The position numbers were made by a program, and so were the translations under genes. From a virus (taxonomy: Duplodnaviria > Heunggongvirae > Uroviricota > Caudoviricetes), in the IMG/VR virus record IMGVR_UViG_2563366977_000006: DNA of 13,375 nucleotides. One strand, written 5' to 3'. Below, piece after piece: positions 1,344 to 13,375 of this stretch. The number at the start of each line of letters is the position of its first letter. Position 1 is the stretch's first letter. Below the pieces are notes generated by a model. The model saw only the letters and a list, made by a program, of their open reading frames with translations, was not told the DNA's origin and did no database searches.

Positions 1344-2099
1344 GTGACTTACAATTCAAAAAGCTGTAGTTCTCTTGAAAAGGCATATTACACTCCAATT
1401 GAAGCGGCGCTACGTTGGTGTAATTTAATTGCTCATGAAGTTTTAATATTGGAGCGAGTGGGAGATGGAGTTTTACCTAGCGTTGGAATGTTCCCTCAAT
1501 GGCCTTGCTTGCGTGTTAATGCTGAGAAAATTTTAGATGCAATCCATAATTGTGAAATTCCTTATGGTCGTGATGGTAAAACTGTTCAACCTGGAGAACA
1601 GGTTGCTAAGCACCGTTTAACCGTCCGTCATTCCGATCTGAAATCATGGATGTCAAAAAACTATCCCAACCAAAAACCAGCTTTCCTTTTTGATGCTGTT
1701 GAGCAGCAGTTACATGCTGGAATTACAGTCGAGGCATATCAAACTCTTCAGGCTGAAAACAAACGTCTTAATATTCGCTTAGATAATGCTATGAAGACTT
1801 TCCAACAGCAGAAAAATGAAATTTCCGAATTACAAGGGGAACGTGATTCACTACGACGAATGGTTGATAACTCCGTGCAAAACATTGACCAACGTTCTGA
1901 AACAACATATTTAAACATTATTGGAGGGTTGCTTTTTCTAATGTTAGGGCGTTCACCTGCTGGTATTAAGCAATCTGTATTCGAAAATCAAAGCTCTATT
2001 ATTAGTAATTTATTGGGGCATTTTGAAGGTAAGCCGGGGATGAGTTCAAGAACGCTGGAAGCAAAGTTTGCTGAAGCTAATAAATCAATTAAATCGTAG
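1344..2099 (+). CDS. hypothetical protein (251 aa) with predicted coiled-coil segment; no family recognised
   Basis: Six-frame ORF with GTG start at 1344 and GAGGT 8 nt upstream; internal ATG alternatives exist. Visibly lower G+C than int. Heptad-like stretch EAYQTLQAENKRLNIRLDNAMKTFQQQKNEISELQGERDSLRRM. Sits between int and alpA on the same strand. Confidence 0.5.
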   Translation: MTYNSKSCSSLEKAYYTPIEAALRWCNLIAHEVLILERVGDGVLPSVGMFPQWPCLRVNAEKILDAIHNCEIPYGRDGKTVQPGEQVAKHRLTVRHSDLKSWMSKNYPNQKPAFLFDAVEQQLHAGITVEAYQTLQAENKRLNIRLDNAMKTFQQQKNEISELQGERDSLRRMVDNSVQNIDQRSETTYLNIIGGLLFLMLGRSPAGIKQSVFENQSSIISNLLGHFEGKPGMSSRTLEAKFAEANKSIKS

Positions 2100-2110
2100 T
2101 TGTATTCCTA

Positions 2111-2145
2111 TACCGCAATTGCGGTATCATTCTCCGCAATTGCGG
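2111..2145. promoter_or_regulatory. two copies of a palindrome (TACCGCAATTGCGGTA at 2111-2126; CCGCAATTGCGG at 2134-2145) upstream of alpA; candidate operator or attenuator
   Basis: Read directly from the sequence: perfect 16-bp and 12-bp palindromes sharing the core CCGCAATTGCGG, lying between the stop of the upstream ORF (2099) and the alpA start (2214). Confidence 0.35.
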
Positions 2146-2213
2146 TGATATCCAATGTCTTACCTGCTTCAATGTCTCCCGTAGGCATCAATAAACAACG
2201 GGAGACGATTATC

Positions 2214-2411
2214 ATGTCACAATCTTTAATTCGTATGCCAGAAACCATGCGCCGTACAGGGTATGGAAGGGCATGGATCTATAAACTAATTGCCCAAGGG
2301 CGTTTTCCTAAACCTGTAAAAATTGGCTCGCGAGCGATTGCTTTCGTTGAGAGTGAAATTGACGAGTGGATTAATCAGCGTATTGCGGAATCACGCGGAA
2401 CAGCTACCTGA
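2214..2411 (+). CDS. alpA: AlpA-family (prophage CP4-57 regulatory protein type) small HTH transcriptional regulator, 65 aa
   Basis: ATG at 2214 with GGAG 9 nt upstream. Protein MSQSLIRMPETMRRTGYGRAWIYKLIAQGRFPKPVKIGSRAIAFVESEIDEWINQR matches the AlpA pattern (LIRLPEV..TG.S...IY.LI..G.FPKP.K.G.RA..W.ESEI..WI). The ORF-track version (2100..2411) has an extended N-terminus I consider unlikely. Confidence 0.85.
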   Translation: MSQSLIRMPETMRRTGYGRAWIYKLIAQGRFPKPVKIGSRAIAFVESEIDEWINQRIAESRGTAT

Positions 2412-2423
2412 TTAAATGGCTAC

Positions 2424-2437
2424 GGGGCTATTGCCCC
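2424..2437 (+). other. GC-rich hairpin GGGGC-TATT-GCCCC just downstream of alpA stop; no U-tract
   Basis: Perfect 5-bp G/C stem with 4-nt loop, 13 nt after the alpA stop. It lacks a T-run, so it is a possible RNA structure or weak terminator rather than a canonical intrinsic terminator. Confidence 0.3.
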
Positions 2438-2488
2438 CAGCTATCCACCAGCAAATAAAAGTAACTTAATTCGATAGCAGGAGTTTTT

Positions 2489-3337
2489 ATGAAATTTCCA
2501 AAAACGCCCGTACAGGGGCAGGGCTTCGTTCGGCCTGAAAACCAGAATCTGCAAAATTTTGGCGAAATTATCCCGGTTATTTCCGGCGTTATTGGCGGGC
2601 GTGAAACCAATATTGTTAGCGCCAGAGCGTTGCATAAGGCGCTCGGGGTAGGCCGTGATTTCACTACCTGGATTAAAGGACGTATTGATGAGTACGGATT
2701 TAAAAATGGCGTGGATTTTGAAATTGTAGAAAATTTGTACTTTGATTCCCCGAAACGGGGGAACCAAAGTGTAAATATTGAACAGTTTGATTCTGATTGG
2801 ACAACAAAGCGCGGCGGTGATCGCCGCAGTGAAGACTATTTGATCTCCACGAACATGGCGAAAGAACTGGCGATGGTCGAACGCACCGAACAAGGCCGCG
2901 CCGTTCGCCAGTATTTCATCAAATGCGAGGAGGAGCTACACAAGGTGGCGCCAGTGCGTTCCGCAGCGTTACGCCGGGAACTGAAAGCCCGTATCACCGT
3001 TGCCAGCTACTTTAAGCCGATGTGCGCTGCGCTGGAGGCGTACCGGGCTGAACTGGGTAAAAACACGTTCCAGCACCACTACACCACGGAAGCCAATATG
3101 CTGGCGCGTATCGTGCTGGGTGGCATGACTGCAAAACAGTGGGCACTGGCGAACGGCATCACAGGCGAACCACGCGACCACATGAGCGTGTTGCAGCTTG
3201 AGCACCTTTCTTACCTTGAGCAGAGCAATATCACGCTGATTGAGTTAGGCCAGGACTACCACCAGCGAAAAGCTGAATTAATTCGTCTTTCGCAGCGTTG
3301 GTTAGCCCGTCGCATGGAGGAAAACAGCCATGTGTAA
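2489..3337 (+). CDS. phage antirepressor-like protein (AntA/AntB-type N-terminal domain), 282 aa
   Basis: ATG at 2489 with AGGAG 5 nt upstream. N-terminal motif SARALHKALGVGRDFTTWIKGRIDEYGF resembles the antirepressor-type pattern (..R.LH..L.V...F..W...RI..Y.F). C-terminal half is helical and of unknown family. Assignment is by memory of the motif, not a search. Confidence 0.6.
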   Translation: MKFPKTPVQGQGFVRPENQNLQNFGEIIPVISGVIGGRETNIVSARALHKALGVGRDFTTWIKGRIDEYGFKNGVDFEIVENLYFDSPKRGNQSVNIEQFDSDWTTKRGGDRRSEDYLISTNMAKELAMVERTEQGRAVRQYFIKCEEELHKVAPVRSAALRRELKARITVASYFKPMCAALEAYRAELGKNTFQHHYTTEANMLARIVLGGMTAKQWALANGITGEPRDHMSVLQLEHLSYLEQSNITLIELGQDYHQRKAELIRLSQRWLARRMEENSHV

Positions 3338-4009
3338 CGCTCTGACCGTTACAAAAAGAGAAAGCGCCCCGTTGCCGGAGCGCCTTTGTGAACGAATAGC
3401 CTACTGCGCCATATTGCTTACTGTCTACGAGGCAGATTATAGCGTTGTGGTTGCACAGAGTGAAGGCGTTGATCACCGTTACCACAGCACACCAGAAATG
3501 CAGAATATTTTGCTGCAAAATGTCGTTGGTCACGCTGTCCGGAAAGCAAAAAATTTTGCTGGTGGCGCGACTGATGCGATTTTGTCAGGTCGCCAGGTGC
3601 TGATCAATCTGATGTCTGATTTCGTTCTGGATAAAACAAAGGCGACCGCAGAGGGCCACCAGTGGGAAAGCTACACACTTGAACACATCGCCAACAATGC
3701 CAGATTTGCGGTTGGTGGGCAATGTGATCAGTGTGCTGGCTTGCTGGTGGGCTATTCCTGCTCTTTAACATTGCCATGCCGCGATGTTTTCCAGGTATGC
3801 GACCCCATTTTTGTGCGCCTGTACTCTTTAAGGAATTTCTCAAGGATAAACGCACAGGGCGCGAATCTGTCTGACCCATGCTCGTACGCTATCTTTCTGC
3901 GCTGTCTTTTCCGTGCCGGTGATGGTGTATTGGTTGATTCTTTGTTGGTCATGGCGCTGCCCTGTAAAACGATGCACCGTAGTTCCTTACACCACGGCGC
4001 TGGTGATGG
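3330..4009 (+). CDS. possible translationally coupled gene with unresolved 3' end (possible decayed gene); frame stays open to 4886
   Basis: ATG at 3330 overlaps the upstream stop (cATGTGTAA) and has GGAGG 9 nt upstream, which argues for a real start. The first ~130 codons look protein-like, but later the translation becomes Cys/Ser/Arg-rich and the frame has no stop until 4886, running antisense through the repressor gene and its operators. The end coordinate is arbitrary. Confidence 0.25.
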
Positions 4010-4312
4010 TTACTCCTGTTCTTTGGCCTTGCGGCGCTGGAGTTCTTCACGTGCGACGGTGACGAGCTGCCCGATCTCCTCGACAGCTTTGACTCCGATT
4101 TTTTCCACCTGCGCCAGTGCATTGAGCGAAGAAACCAGGGGATTTTCTCCGCTTCCTTCTGCCTGGCGGCGGGCGATCTCACCACGCATGGCGGTTACTA
4201 TGAATCCGGCGTTGCTTTCGCCGTCCAGTTTTACGGATTCCATACCCTCCATAACATCGTGGGGAACCCTGATCGTTGTCATTTGCGATTTTGCATTTTT
4301 GTATACAGACAT
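4010..4312 (-). CDS. ribbon-helix-helix (Arc/CopG-like) DNA-binding regulator, 100 aa; candidate immunity/maintenance repressor
   Basis: Minus-strand ORF; start ATG at 4312 with GGTGA about 6 nt upstream. N-terminus TTIRVPHDVMEGMESVKLDGESNAGFIVTAMRGEIARRQ fits a beta-strand plus two-helix RHH pattern, followed by a helical/coiled C-terminus. It is divergent from the rightward operon. Confidence 0.7.
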   Translation of the reverse strand: MSVYKNAKSQMTTIRVPHDVMEGMESVKLDGESNAGFIVTAMRGEIARRQAEGSGENPLVSSLNALAQVEKIGVKAVEEIGQLVTVAREELQRRKAKEQE

Positions 4313-4332
4313 AGTTAATCACCAATTAGTTA

Positions 4333-4433
4333 TGTGTATATCACTATACACAAAAGTGAGATATAAAAACACTTGCAATGTATATCACCACAATATAATG
4401 TATATCTCACATTGTGATGGCTATGTATCTCAC
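4333..4433. promoter_or_regulatory. operator-like repeats in the divergent control region (4 copies of ATGTAT(A)TC(T)CAC plus palindromes)
   Basis: Read directly: TGTGTATAtcacTATACACA palindrome 4333-4352; ATGTATATCAC 4378-4388; ATGTATATCTCAC 4398-4410; TCACAtTGTGA palindrome 4406-4416; ATGTATCTCAC 4423-4433. All lie between the RHH gene start (4312) and the first rightward gene (4521). Confidence 0.55.
4373..4399 (+). promoter_or_regulatory. candidate sigma70 promoter for the rightward operon (-35 TTGCAA 4373-4378, 15-nt spacer, -10 TATAAT 4394-4399)
   Basis: Hexamers read by eye. The operator-like repeats overlap the spacer and the -10 element, as expected for a repressible promoter. The spacer is on the short side and there is no experimental support. 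Confidence 0.4.
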
Positions 4434-4520
4434 AATGATCGATTCATAAAAACGACGAAACCCGGCAGTGCGCTAACACTAACCGGGCTTCTAACCAAAC
4501 CGTTAAATGAGGTAACGATT

Positions 4521-4886
4521 ATGGCTGGGGCACAGCATACCCAAACTCACCCTAAATTTATATACACCTTCCTGGCGGTGCACCGTAATTGCATAGCTGA
4601 CGGTAAAAACACTGTTCATGTAGCCGCCGATACGCTGGTTGATGCCTGCGAGATGCTCAATGACATGGGCTATATCTCGGCAACATGGAAAGGGCGCGAA
4701 GAAAACACGCTGTTTATTCAGAAATGCGAAAACAATTTTATCTGGCGTTTTATCGCCCTGAGCACAGCACAACCGCGTGTAATTCACATCGAGGCCACCA
4801 GCGAACAGGAAGCACGCCAGCAATCTCCTGATGGCTGCGTGATGGTATTCGCCGCCCGTATTCGCCAGGAGGTGGAACATGTGTAA
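4521..4886 (+). CDS. hypothetical protein, 121 aa (first gene of rightward operon)
   Basis: ATG at 4521 with TGAGGT ending 8 nt upstream; in-frame part of the long ORF-track ORF 3330..4886. Stop overlaps the next start (ATGTGTAA). Confidence 0.65.
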   Translation: MAGAQHTQTHPKFIYTFLAVHRNCIADGKNTVHVAADTLVDACEMLNDMGYISATWKGREENTLFIQKCENNFIWRFIALSTAQPRVIHIEATSEQEARQQSPDGCVMVFAARIRQEVEHV

Positions 4887-7977: not shown

Positions 7978-8011
7978 TACGAAATTTATAAGTTGAAACT
8001 TAAAAGTAGAC

Positions 8012-8340
8012 GGTTGGTAGACAGATACACTTAACCCTCTACCAACCATCTACTAATTAATATTTTGAATTATATAGGTATTTTTAATGTGGTAGAGAGG
8101 TGGACATTTTATTTTATATTTCTAAACCACGGGGGTATCTAAAAATAGATAGTTATGGGTTCATTTTTAAAATTTTTCTTTTAACTATCTACACTGTCTA
8201 CCATTTAGTAAAAATCATTAATTATCAATGTATTAATACGGTAGAGAGTTGGTAGACAGTTTGCAGATTGTTTTTTGTTATGTGTGAACAACATTAAATA
8301 AATCAATCAATTATATCGATAGACAGTTGGTAGACAGTTG
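8012..8340. repeat. putative iteron-type origin of replication: about 7 copies of GGTAGA(C/G)AG in both orientations within an AT-rich region
   Basis: Read directly: GGTTGGTAGACAG 8012-8024; inverted CTCTACCAACC 8037-8047; GGTAGAGAGG 8091-8100; inverted CTGTCTACC 8194-8202; GGTAGAGAGTTGGTAGACAG 8240-8259; ATAGACAGTTGGTAGACAGTTG 8319-8340. Inverted repeat TAGATAGTT (8146-8154) / AACTATCTA (8182-8190) flanks a very AT-rich stretch that could act as an unwinding element. Confidence 0.6.
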
Positions 8341-11026: not shown

Positions 11027-11119
11027 ATGCTTTTTGTTTCATTTATTGCAATTATCGCTGGTATCATTTCAATTTGTGCAATAATTGCAATTATTGTCAT
11101 TCAGAAGGGATCATCATGA
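11027..11119 (+). CDS. possible 30-aa hydrophobic peptide MLFVSFIAIIAGIISICAIIAIIVIQKGSS (single TM)
   Basis: In-frame ATG inside ORF-track ORF 10880..11119, with AAGG about 11 nt upstream. Almost entirely hydrophobic with a polar C-terminus. Its stop overlaps the ATG of the next gene (ATGA). Could equally be non-coding. Confidence 0.3.
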   Translation: MLFVSFIAIIAGIISICAIIAIIVIQKGSS

Positions 11120-11283
11120 AAAATCACGGAGTAAAGCCAGTTTTACTTTCCCGGGGGCAAATCGAAGCCCTGCAACGTATCCAGGCCGAAAGGCGTCAGA
11201 AATCTGTGCTTGGTGTGGCACCGTCGATTCATGTTATTGCCCGGCAACTGATGGATAAGGCACTTAAAGAGGTGAGGCTGTGA
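11116..11283 (+). CDS. hypothetical small protein, 55 aa
   Basis: ATG 11116 with AGGGA 6 nt upstream; in-frame within ORF-track ORF 10960..11283, whose N-terminal part is Cys/Tyr/Asn-rich and implausible. Stop overlaps the GTG start of the next ORF. Confidence 0.5.
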   Translation: MKNHGVKPVLLSRGQIEALQRIQAERRQKSVLGVAPSIHVIARQLMDKALKEVRL

Positions 11284-11552
11284 AATTAAATATCAGAGTG
11301 GATAAACGCCAGCTATGGCAGAAAAAAGAGAACAGCGAGGCATTCAGGGCTTTGCTGGTGGAAAATCTTCGGCACCGGTTCAGTGGAGAGTTGCCTGATG
11401 CACTGGGGAAGAAACTGGAATCCCTGACGGTGGAAATTGGCGATTATGGCTTTGTTGATGTTGAAAGCACGACTGCCAACACAGAAATCGTAAAGCAGGT
11501 CGTCAATGATGTAATGAAAACCACGCTTAGCCAGCCATCCTGGCGCAACTGA
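11280..11552 (+). CDS. hypothetical protein, 90 aa
   Basis: GTG start overlapping the upstream stop (GTGA); followed by a hairpin terminator. Confidence 0.5.
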   Translation: MKLNIRVDKRQLWQKKENSEAFRALLVENLRHRFSGELPDALGKKLESLTVEIGDYGFVDVESTTANTEIVKQVVNDVMKTTLSQPSWRN

Positions 11553-11651: not shown

Positions 11652-12176
11652 ATGTTGATGAGTAAAGCCGAATACGCCAAATACAAAGGCGTAAGCCGCC
11701 AGACAGTTTACGACTGGATCGAGAAAGGCGAAGTGATCATGTCTGGCAAAAAAATTGATGTGGAGGCGACAGAGCAGCGGAACAGCCCACCGGCACAGGG
11801 GAAAGACACCGTTTCTGAAATGTGGCCAGAAAGAACGCTGGAAATGACGTGGGGCGAGTTCTGGAAAGCAGTTAAGGCCAGAGACGGTAAAATCCCTGCG
11901 CCAGTAACGGACGACGACATACAGCAACGTGTGCTGGATGCAGCCGGGGAATTCGGCTGGGAAGTGCAATTTCTTGATGATGGCGGGATTTGGATGGATG
12001 ACGGCGATGCTGAGTTTTATTTCGAGCAATATGATCTCAGGCAGAATGCCGAACTGGTGATTGGTACGCTGCGACGTGAGGTCTGTTATGTGGCTGATGC
12101 TTGTCCTGACGAGCTGGATAACTGGAGCGAAGCCGGACTAAACGCCCTGGCTGCATGGGAAAAAACAGGTCATTAA
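11652..12176 (+). CDS. HTH DNA-binding protein (Nu1/excisionase-like winged-helix N-terminus) with acidic C-terminal domain, about 175 aa
   Basis: ATG 11652 with GAGGTG 6 nt upstream; ORF-track start 11634 and ATG 11658 are alternatives. N-terminus MSKAEYAKYKGVSRQTVYDWIEKGEV has the pattern of small-terminase Nu1-type / excisionase-type HTH. The C-terminus is Asp/Glu-rich. Confidence 0.65.
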   Translation: MLMSKAEYAKYKGVSRQTVYDWIEKGEVIMSGKKIDVEATEQRNSPPAQGKDTVSEMWPERTLEMTWGEFWKAVKARDGKIPAPVTDDDIQQRVLDAAGEFGWEVQFLDDGGIWMDDGDAEFYFEQYDLRQNAELVIGTLRREVCYVADACPDELDNWSEAGLNALAAWEKTGH

Positions 12177-12183
12177 CGGCCGC

Positions 12184-12466
12184 AAAAAGTGTCAAGTTGA
12201 GCAGCTTGCCAGGTTGACACTTTACACTCTGAACACGAAAAAGTGTCAACCTCGCTGTAAGCCCCGCCGTTACTGGCTTTGCGCCATATTTACCACATCA
12301 AAAAGCAGAAAAAATCGCGAAAAGTGTCAAGTTGCCATGCTTAGAAATGCTAAGTTTTGTTAAGGTTTTTCGCGAAAAAGTGTCAAGTGTGTCAACCTGC
12401 GATATTAAGATTTATTAAGGTCTTAAGCCGGAAAGTGTCAACCAGCCCCTAAGATTTCCTAAGGTG
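12184..12466. repeat. interleaved iteron array: 6 direct and 1 inverted copies of AAAGTGTCAA plus 3 copies of TAAG-N-TTT-NN-TAAGGT
   Basis: Read directly. AAAGTGTCAA cores at 12186-12195, 12240-12249, 12321-12330, 12377-12386, 12432-12441; inverted copy at 12214-12223; partial GTGTCAAC at 12390-12397. Second family: TAAGTTTTGTTAAGGT 12351-12366, TAAGATTTATTAAGGT 12406-12421, TAAGATTTCCTAAGGT 12449-12464. Confidence 0.7.
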
Positions 12467-12489
12467 TGATTGAACGTGCTGTAACCTTC

Positions 12490-12518
12490 TTGTCGTAATG
12501 TGGATGAATGACTATAGT
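12490..12518 (+). promoter_or_regulatory. candidate sigma70 promoter for the AT-rich downstream gene (-35 TTGTCG, 17-nt spacer, -10 TATAGT)
   Basis: Hexamers read by eye at 12490-12495 and 12513-12518; about 47 nt upstream of the ATG at 12565. Confidence 0.35.
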
Positions 12519-12564
12519 GCTGGTAACTTTGACCGCAGAATCAGATTACTGAAGGAAGTGTGTG

Positions 12565-13146
12565 ATGAGTTTTTTTAGTCTTTATGGGAAAGAACTATTT
12601 TCTTTTTTTATAGCGATTTTAACATGGATACTGAATAACAGATTTAAAAGCAAGGCAAAGTTATCCTATGGTTATCAGCATGGATTTACTTTTCTTCTCA
12701 ATGAACCCTTACGGAATGCTAATGGTGAGGTAATATCTAATTCACAGTTGGTGTATACACGATCTATTATTCTTGTTAATGAAGGGCGAGAAAGTGCTAC
12801 TAATATATCATTGGTTTTTAACTATAAACCAATGCATATTAATTTTTGGCCTGTCCACCATTTTGAAGAAAATATTGAACAGGATGGTCGCTATATTATC
12901 AAGTTTGAAAACCTTGCACCTAGTGAGTCTATTCAATGTGAAATATTATCAATAAATAGAGAAGTTCCAAGTATTCTATCGATAAGATCTAAAGAGTGTG
13001 TGGCTGAGCCAGTGAATATCGTGATGCAAAAATCGATTAGTAATATTGCCCTACGTTGCTATCAATTATTAATACTTCTTGGAACTGGCACATTAACATA
13101 TTTAATTATCGTTATTCTGCAATGGTTAGTCACTAAAACGGGATAA
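12565..13146 (+). CDS. hypothetical protein, 193 aa, with N- and C-terminal transmembrane helices flanking a ~140-aa central domain; very AT-rich
   Basis: ATG 12565 with GAAGGAAG upstream; the ORF track starts one codon earlier at GTG 12562. N-terminal TM LFSFFIAILTWIL; C-terminal TM LLILLGTGTLTYLIIVILQWLV. Hand count of 12601-12660 gives about 28% G+C. Confidence 0.7.
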   Translation: MSFFSLYGKELFSFFIAILTWILNNRFKSKAKLSYGYQHGFTFLLNEPLRNANGEVISNSQLVYTRSIILVNEGRESATNISLVFNYKPMHINFWPVHHFEENIEQDGRYIIKFENLAPSESIQCEILSINREVPSILSIRSKECVAEPVNIVMQKSISNIALRCYQLLILLGTGTLTYLIIVILQWLVTKTG

Positions 13147-13195
13147 TCCATTGTGTTGAACTTATTAATTGGATATGAGTGCTGATAGGAAACCT

Positions 13196-13375
13196 ATGAC
13201 CATCACCGAAGCCGATATGCTGGAGATGATCCGCAGCATTGCCGGAATCAAACAACCAGCAAGCAAAATTAACAGGTGTTCAGCGCCTGTTTCCGTTGTG
13301 CTGCAACAGGAACGCCACCAGCAGGATGATGTAAGGCCGTATCAGTGGAAGAAACCGGACAGGCCGCGACGGTGA
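13196..13375 (+). CDS. possible small ORF (59 aa) at window edge, unknown function
   Basis: ATG 13196 with AGGA 7 nt upstream; ORF-track version starts at 13169. G+C returns to about 53% (hand count 13201-13260). No motif recognised; could be a chance ORF. Confidence 0.3.
   Translation: MTITEADMLEMIRSIAGIKQPASKINRCSAPVSVVLQQERHQQDDVRPYQWKKPDRPRR

Follow-up and report, generated by a model that had tools for sequence, protein, structure and literature searches.

The DNA stretch considered here, 13,375 nucleotides of the viral record IMGVR_UViG_2563366977_000006 (hereafter the window), carries a gene for a helix-turn-helix (HTH) protein at 11652-12176 (plus strand), which is followed by a dense array of short repeats at 12186-12465. 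This arrangement had been described in an earlier note on the same DNA, together with the suggestion of a multi-site protein-binding platform, and both are borne out: six exact copies of AAAGTGTCAA, a further GTGTCAA core and three copies of TAAGNTTTNNTAAGGT form an array that is conserved and travels with the HTH gene. By comparison with related satellites, the array is very probably the binding platform of the adjacent protein, the DNA-binding domain of which appears to derive from a terminase small subunit (TerS). It can further be proposed, tentatively and with a little less than even confidence, that the array is an Rpp-like packaging-recognition site that would mark the DNA of the island for helper capsids. 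The sequence of the window recurs with 100% identity in the chromosome of Escherichia coli SCU-104, the island of which spans 16 kb between tRNA-Thr and a thrW-like attR (locus L001, ~2236-18368) and encodes an integrase, an AlpA-type regulator, a D5_N/DUF5906 primase (pri), ProQ/FinO and PerC proteins and an int-alpA RNA. Judged by this gene content, the window is a phage satellite of the Gram-negative phage-inducible chromosomal island (PICI) type, inserted at tRNA-Thr.

Three elements, named A (AAAGTGTCAA), B (TAAGNTTTNNTAAGGT) and C (AAGCCCCGCCGTTACTGGCTTTG), are distinguished within the array. Exact searches located six A copies in the window, five on the plus and one on the minus strand, all of them inside 256 bp, and the only other match in the window, with one mismatch, lies at 2766 (1.16 chance matches expected). 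The 5' half of the array consists of A1 (12186-12195, plus), A2 (12214-12223, minus), which forms a convergent pair with A1, and A3 (12240-12249, plus), followed by an 81-bp gap before A4 (12321-12330, plus); the single-copy C element (12259-12281, plus) is placed in this gap. An inverted A copy was present in 15 of 15 diverse arrays examined. The 3' half, by comparison of 36 nt with 78% identity at a spacing of 55, represents ~2.5 copies of a composite unit of ~55 bp with one A and one B site, and comprises B1 (TAAGTTTTGTTAAGGT, 12351-12366), A5 (12377-12386), B2 (TAAGATTTATTAAGGT, 12406-12421), A6 (12432-12441) and B3 (TAAGATTTCCTAAGGT, 12450-12465), all on the plus strand. A palindrome, CTTAG-N5-CTAAG (12340-12354), overlaps the start of B1, and its motif (GA)TGCTTAGAAATGC(T/C)A recurs in the arrays of other genera. 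Seven A elements in an alternating pattern had previously been claimed; six are exact, the seventh (A5', 12389-12395, plus) retains only the GTGTCAA core, and the alternation holds for the 3' half but not for the 5' half, with its A(+), A(-), A(+) and gap. The view that the array is too regular for chance was confirmed by the B motif, found at 12351, 12406 and 12450, three times against 0.03 expected, a count that was reached in none of 200 shuffles. No tandem array was called within it by Tandem Repeats Finder, and no RNA family by Rfam.

The HTH gene starts at 11652 (MLMSK...), in agreement with RefSeq and with all homologues, and encodes a protein of 174 amino acids. In its AlphaFold2 model, which has a pLDDT of 89, an N-terminal winged HTH (residues 1-44) is connected by a disordered linker (46-55) to a C-domain (63-166) with an alpha-beta-beta-beta-alpha core. 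Among PHROGs, family 57 (terminase small subunit) gives the best match, confined to residues 5-48, and RppA of the satellite EcCICFT073 likewise matches PHROG 57 at the N-terminus only. When the family profile was aligned by hhalign with TerS of the Serratia cos phage BZS1, the first 40 residues matched with 96.8% probability. On profile similarity, the N-terminal ~40 residues are thus homologous to the part of Nu1-type small terminases that binds DNA, and the remainder appears as an alpha/beta domain unrelated to TerS; the similarity does not extend over a full-length Nu1-type TerS with its oligomerisation and TerL-binding regions, and the middle and C-terminal regions of TerS are absent from the HTH protein. 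Pfam Phage_Nu1 gave no match, and scans of the protein with Pfam, NCBIfam and PADLOC returned sub-threshold HTH/excisionase matches only (HTH_17, 22.6 bits against a cut-off of 27; TIGR01764, 22.3 against 28.8). An excisionase or recombination directionality factor was rejected, as the family thresholds were failed and the array is at least 3.8 kb from attR, with variable cargo between them (in L001 coordinates, the array is at 14587-14866 and attR at ~18288-18368). Searches of PDB sequences, RppC included, with phmmer and the family profile yielded chance HTH matches only; BLASTP against RppA gave an E value of 0.06 over 35 residues, so that no sequence homology to RppA, RppB or RppC was found, and Foldseek against viral predicted structures returned nothing at E<=0.001 and no full-length analogue. 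Within the family, the mean pairwise identity is 76% for the N-domain versus 42% for the C-domain, a pattern that would fit a fixed DNA target combined with a changing protein partner. The protein P0093, in which AntA is fused to the C-domain, had been considered as a clue to domain shuffling and was discarded as a deletion artefact.

The repeats accompany the protein family well beyond E. coli. Through protein similarity alone, 11 loci were found in seven genera (Escherichia, Pantoea, Rouxiella, Raoultella, Serratia, Buttiauxella and Erwinia), and all of them contain GTGT[CA]AA clusters with 3-8 copies per 400 bp, which surpass all 200 shuffles in 10 of the 11. The cluster begins at most ~40 bp from the end of the gene in 8 of the 11 loci, and in three genera gene and array are separated by 1.5-3.7 kb of inserted cargo. 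In E. coli, the array is carried by ~166 of 5,426 complete genomes; its A sites are invariant across 33 distinct E. coli-type arrays, and the nucleotide identity is mostly 90-99% for the array versus mostly 80-90% for gene plus array. B-like elements (GATGCTAAG...TAAGG, TAGAAATGC) are also found in the arrays of Pantoea, Erwinia, Raoultella and Serratia, and because of this recurrence they are regarded as functional. Arrays from outside E. coli additionally show a AAACGAAACCGA element between the convergent A pair. The homologues of the HTH protein are confined to Enterobacterales and are all annotated as hypothetical; tblastn against 50,697 phage records and 72,556 plasmids produced no match, nor did blastn of the array against phages. 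Three AT-rich phage loci that the search pattern also picked up (L039, L041 and L119) have TTGACAC repeats next to replication genes and are unrelated.

The most informative comparison is provided by a sister lineage of satellites, identified by a pattern scan of IMG/VR and represented by eight contigs (L026, L068, L076, L080, L103, L109, L115 and L121). In these satellites the GTGTCAA repeats are located directly upstream of the HTH gene, the product of which has 186-209 amino acids, is ~30% identical to the window protein and presents the same kind of recognition helix. The L076 protein is a full-length PHROG-57 TerS (E 2.7e-23), with 41% identity to the TerS of BZS1 and 39% to that of Citrobacter phage phiNP. 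All eight loci contain, upstream of the repeats, the exact cosN of BZS1/phiNP (CATTGCGCGCCG), together with a phage-like cosQ (ATGGGTCCTTCC) and spacer (CTAGCTAT...TTTTGAATTTG). In the BZS1 record, the left cohesive end is annotated as GCATTGCGCGCC, terS begins 75 nt in, and three GGTAACA repeats are situated between the two; BZS1 and phiNP alike have their three GGTAACA copies within 30 bp, between cosN and terS. After the spacer, the satellites carry GTGTCAA/TTGACAC where the phages carry GGTAACA, and the recognition helix differs correspondingly, being SRQT(V/L/I)Y(D/T)W in satellites versus SRKTVT(S/Q)W in phages. Judged by their position, the GTGTCAA repeats of the sister lineage are a satellite-specific cosB, in which the swap is visible base by base. 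This is the arrangement deduced for Rpp and the cosB of EcCICFT073 (Fillol-Salom et al., 2019; PMC6739421), here with explicit repeats and another helper group. These shared cos sequences point to BZS1/phiNP-like cos phages as a candidate helper group for the sister lineage. Since both the DNA-binding domain and the repeats of the window are homologous to those of the sister lineage, the A sites of the window are read as probable binding sites of the HTH protein. A comparison with helper cos regions had been proposed in the earlier note, and its outcome is twofold: in sister satellites GTGTCAA replaces GGTAACA of BZS1/phiNP, whereas the window array has no adjoining cosN. As a separate observation, L103 encodes beside its cos and array a 600-aa protein (1491-3293, minus strand) with tape-measure/lytic tail profiles (PHROG 2276, E 1e-61), an unusual cargo for a PICI-like element.

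Another line of evidence is the genomic position. EcCICFT073 was located in CFT073 at L019 22930-33900, and its gene order places cos1, with a lambda-type cosN, just upstream of rppA and an inverted cos2 just downstream, followed by a small PHROG-1561 open reading frame (ORF). In the window, a conserved small ORF of 59 amino acids and of the same PHROG (13196-13375, plus) marks the downstream edge of the module, and its homologue follows rppA and cos2 in EcCICFT073. On gene order, the HTH gene and array therefore occupy the slot held by rppA and cos in EcCICFT073, and the protein is encoded, as Rpp proteins are, in the packaging/interference module of a Gram-negative PICI. In strain 83972, the homologous small ORF starts 8 nt after the last TAAGGTG of the array; in islands lacking the cargo insertion, the TAAGGTG of B3, 8 nt before the ATG of the small ORF, doubles as its Shine-Dalgarno sequence. 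Repeats of the type AACCCGTTGAT(A/T)TT were observed after the PHROG-1561 ORF, in three copies in EcCICFT073 (L019 33660-33810) and also in at least one island of the window's type (L078 ~1530, minus strand); these may be arm-type sites of the integrase or sites for another protein.

In E. coli, satellites use Rpp proteins to send the terminase of the helper to a cosB of their own (Fillol-Salom et al., 2019; PMC6739421). In the passages of that study consulted here, R elements of the PICI cosB are inferred without stated repeat sequences, and the helpers are of lambda/phi80 type only (PMC6739421). By analogy, the HTH protein would be an Rpp-like derivative of a Nu1-type small terminase, and the array would be comparable to the R elements of cosB or to a pac site. 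With RppA/RppC and cos1 of EcCICFT073 the present system shares a small PICI-encoded protein in the same gene slot ahead of the PHROG-1561 ORF, an N-terminal domain that is a mimic or homologue of the Nu1-type TerS DNA-binding domain, as in the Rpp fold, and a satellite-specific recognition sequence unlike the cosB of the helper; the sister satellites, in addition, keep the helper cosN and swap the R elements. In contrast, there is no detectable sequence homology to RppA/RppC beyond the HTH, the C-domain is alpha/beta and not a helical homodimerisation domain, the source TerS lineage is that of BZS1/phiNP instead of lambda/phi80, and the array lies downstream of the gene, without an adjoining cosN and with explicit repeats.

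The lambda-type cosB/gpNu1 pairs of BZS1 and phiNP likewise offer a homologous winged HTH, short repeats as its targets and one inverted repeat. In lambda cosB, R3 is inverted relative to R2 and R1. The seven GTGTCAA copies of the window co-occur with the protein family as repeated TerS-binding elements do in a lambda-type cosB, although binding is here a prediction; they extend over 256 bp and are accompanied by B and C elements, whereas the three GGTAACA copies of BZS1/phiNP fall within 30 bp, and the window, unlike these phages, combines an array without adjoining cosN with a protein without the middle and C-terminal regions of TerS. The pac sites of P1 and SPP1 are multi-repeat binding sites of small terminases, with short repeats on both sides of a central region. 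The window array resembles them in its several short repeats about a central region, but neither homology of sequence or protein nor a sign of cleavage or methylation control was seen. In essence, the logic of Rpp and cosB is followed, but with another protein family, source terminase lineage, C-domain and arrangement, and without a cosN next to the array. The HTH protein would represent a second family of terminase mimics, unrelated in sequence to the first and equipped with an explicit conserved recognition repeat, and the window a variant whose recognition array is not coupled to a cosN. In a literature search, no newer Rpp-like family of relevance was found, and a paper on EcCIMP1 was put aside as it concerns a different island.

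A mechanism can be outlined on this basis. The N-terminal winged HTH, with its recognition helix SRQTVYDW, would bind the GTGTCAA repeats, and the convergent A1/A2 pair together with the ~55-bp-phased direct repeats, each preceded by an A-tract, could give rise to a bent or wrapped nucleoprotein complex, to which B and C elements would probably recruit further host or island factors. The divergent alpha/beta C-domain might then engage packaging proteins of the helper phage, by which the helper terminase would be steered to island DNA over phage DNA.

Several observations, nevertheless, weigh against a role in packaging. A lambda-, BZS1- or phiP27-type cosN was found neither in nor beside the window array; a lambda-type cosB adjoins cosN upstream of terS, whereas the window array is downstream of its gene, and the combination of a helper cosN with an own cosB, typical of PICI cos sites with Rpp, is absent from the window array and present in the sister lineage. 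The sole recognisable cos of the island is a phiP27/HK97-type segment (L001 17866-18045) ~3.5 kb downstream of the array and outside the window, ~2.1-2.3 kb past its end, ~250 bp before attR and beyond the variable cargo. This segment is homologous to the 3' end of the phiP27 HNH gene, the cos and the region before terS (72% over 173 bp), and a block of 35 nt on the right side of the 10-nt cos annotated in phiP27 is almost identical. There are no A sites nearby, the segment is restricted to a subset of the islands that carry the module (L002, L052, L082, L093, L105, L014/15) and is absent from the 83972 island, and phiP27 TerS is unrelated to the HTH protein. Moreover, the C-domain resembles neither the oligomerisation and TerL-binding regions of TerS nor the helical dimerisation domain of Rpp, and within the array there is a C element, which at other loci is a mark of replication origins of the iteron type. 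The IMG/VR contigs, inspected for terminal repeats or fixed ends as stand-ins for packaging termini, showed none.

As no helper cosN adjoins the array, the packaging mechanism would not be a plain copy of the lambda cos system. The phiP27-type segment suggests an HK97/phiP27-like cos helper, and the cut site of this island could be that cos near attR or be generated by headful cutting near the array. From the cos misfits it follows that the array would nucleate packaging without a fixed cut site, would serve another helper, or would have shifted in function. The C element was also considered as a degenerate BZS1 cosN and rejected, as the two are not aligned by MAFFT. Among the functions earlier put forward for the array, a packaging-recognition site is the best supported, given that the same repeats constitute the putative cosB of sister satellites beside a helper-type cosN; the missing cosN at the window array is the part that does not fit.

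As the main alternative, the array would be a replication origin of iteron type, or a cis element like crr of P4, and the HTH protein an origin-binding protein, with GTGTCAA as iterons, C as a conserved origin component and the AT-rich B segments as easily melted spacers. The probability of this alternative is minor but appreciable, and it draws mainly on the C element. The core of this element, CGCC[G/A]TTACTGG.TT with AA[AG]CC upstream, is present in every array of the window's subfamily and, in EcCICFT073, inside the ori between GGTAGA iterons (L019 29189-29206), an origin that has been experimentally validated (PMC6092414). It is further found 45-65 bp after pri in islands with the other primase allele and, in unrelated viral contigs, between element-specific iterons at initiator and primase genes: inside Phage_rep_O genes (with the same region in Stx2a phages), within a gene for an initiator that precedes a DnaB-like helicase gene, after a VapE-type primase gene, and beside DUF5906 and Prim-Pol primases. 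Outside EcCICFT073, instances between iterons are at L042 5857, L040 7225, L175 1886, L238 8648, L211 2955 and 3025, and L141 1220. For a pattern as short as the one scanned, ~220 matches in IMG/VR would arise by chance, and only instances with conserved flanks and iterons count. The layout, too, is origin-like, as a single-copy core is flanked on both sides by repeats, and the pri-linked origin of the window has no C element, while the array always has one.

That pri-linked origin is at the same time an objection. A complete island origin (8005-8340) is already present directly 3' of the primase gene, where some nine iterons of the GGTAGACAGTT type, pointing in both directions, surround a very AT-rich core of ~20% GC, an organisation that matches the one described for E. 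coli PICIs (PMC6092414). PICI origins have two iteron sets flanking an AT-rich region directly 3' of pri-rep; the array shares with them the repeat sets on both sides of a core and, with the EcCICFT073 ori, the C element, but its motif is unlike that of the primase-linked origin, it lies 4.2 kb from pri, its GC content is 37-50% in 100-bp intervals without a long AT-rich stretch, and its neighbouring protein has a terminase-type and not an O-/Rep-type DNA-binding domain. In sister satellites the same repeats occupy the cosB position by cosN, and the C element is absent from these arrays. In addition, HTH and primase alleles do not vary together, and no homologue was found on any of the plasmids searched. 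Two good-scoring C instances lie upstream of terS/terL (L148, L212), and C may be a general architectural site. The earlier proposal of a second replication site is therefore supported by the origin-associated C element inside the array and weakened by the separate complete origin.

The C element itself is either a general architectural (host-factor) site of origins and packaging sites, similar to an IHF site, or the sign of a replication-linked array. A hybrid site can also be envisaged, in which a terminase-derived DNA-binding domain acting on an origin-type core of C and flanking repeats would constitute a new origin-binding or replication-packaging coupling factor; separately, C would be an unrecognised shared component of iteron origins of the O, VapE, DUF5906 and Prim-Pol types. 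Both are judged unlikely, but an origin-associated C element, if real, would be a separate lead on phage and satellite replication. No description of its sequence was found in the literature. A hairpin (AAGCC/GGCTT) within C was rejected, as no consistent covariation was seen by eye.

A second alternative, in which the array would be an operator and the HTH protein would repress or activate, in the manner of Cox or BldC, either its own operon or the small ORF together with the accessory genes downstream, is improbable. The fold class does include the regulators Cox and BldC, which bind direct-repeat arrays, B3 and the Shine-Dalgarno sequence of the small ORF overlap in islands where the insertion is missing, the sister-lineage array is directly upstream of the HTH gene, and a Pantoea homologue is labelled "Repressor" in one source, in name only. 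However, a promoter and terminator scan revealed nothing inside the array, with no sigma-70-like promoter, and array and HTH gene stay adjacent but exchange their order between lineages, which is unlike a single regulatory logic. The cargo that parts gene and array in three genera, the cos site that flanks the array in the sister lineage, and the extent of seven sites over 250 bp with two more conserved element types, which exceeds a typical operator, argue in the same direction. An activator array for the AT-rich gene at 12565, as once suggested, is contradicted by the nature of that ORF, which is inserted cargo of 30-35% GC absent from most relatives, the homology of the 33 E. coli-type arrays ending at ~12470. 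A partition (centromere-like) site bound by the HTH protein, also among the earlier suggestions, is highly improbable, as genes for a partition ATPase or another motor are missing from the island and the element is an integrated satellite without plasmid homologues.

Downstream of the array, a cargo cassette of ~700 bp (12470-13168, plus) is inserted at the exact junction of B3 and the start of the conserved small ORF. The cassette stands outside the conserved module, has a promoter-like site of its own at 12490-12518, and encodes a membrane protein of 194 amino acids without family match (12562-13146, plus). Variable cargo of this kind starts directly 3' of the array and extends to the island end, and a layout with variable cargo downstream of satellite pac sites has been reported (PMC12829572); the cassette is an example of an accessory-gene hotspot downstream of the array. 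The module is present in ~3% of complete E. coli genomes beside this variable hotspot, so that its mechanism bears on the spread of the cargo.

Elsewhere in the window, two small conserved ORFs of 55 and 90 amino acids without family match (11116-11552, plus) precede the HTH gene in relatives. The long plus-strand ORF at 3330-4886 overlaps minus-strand genes of the YlcI/YnfO family and is probably not real. The AntA/AntB antirepressor homologue (2489-3337) is a pseudogene with an internal stop in RefSeq, and an Icd-like gene is partial. The int-alpA RNA (Rfam RF02996) was located at 1259-1327, between the integrase gene and the next gene, with 44.7 bits against a gathering score of 35.8.

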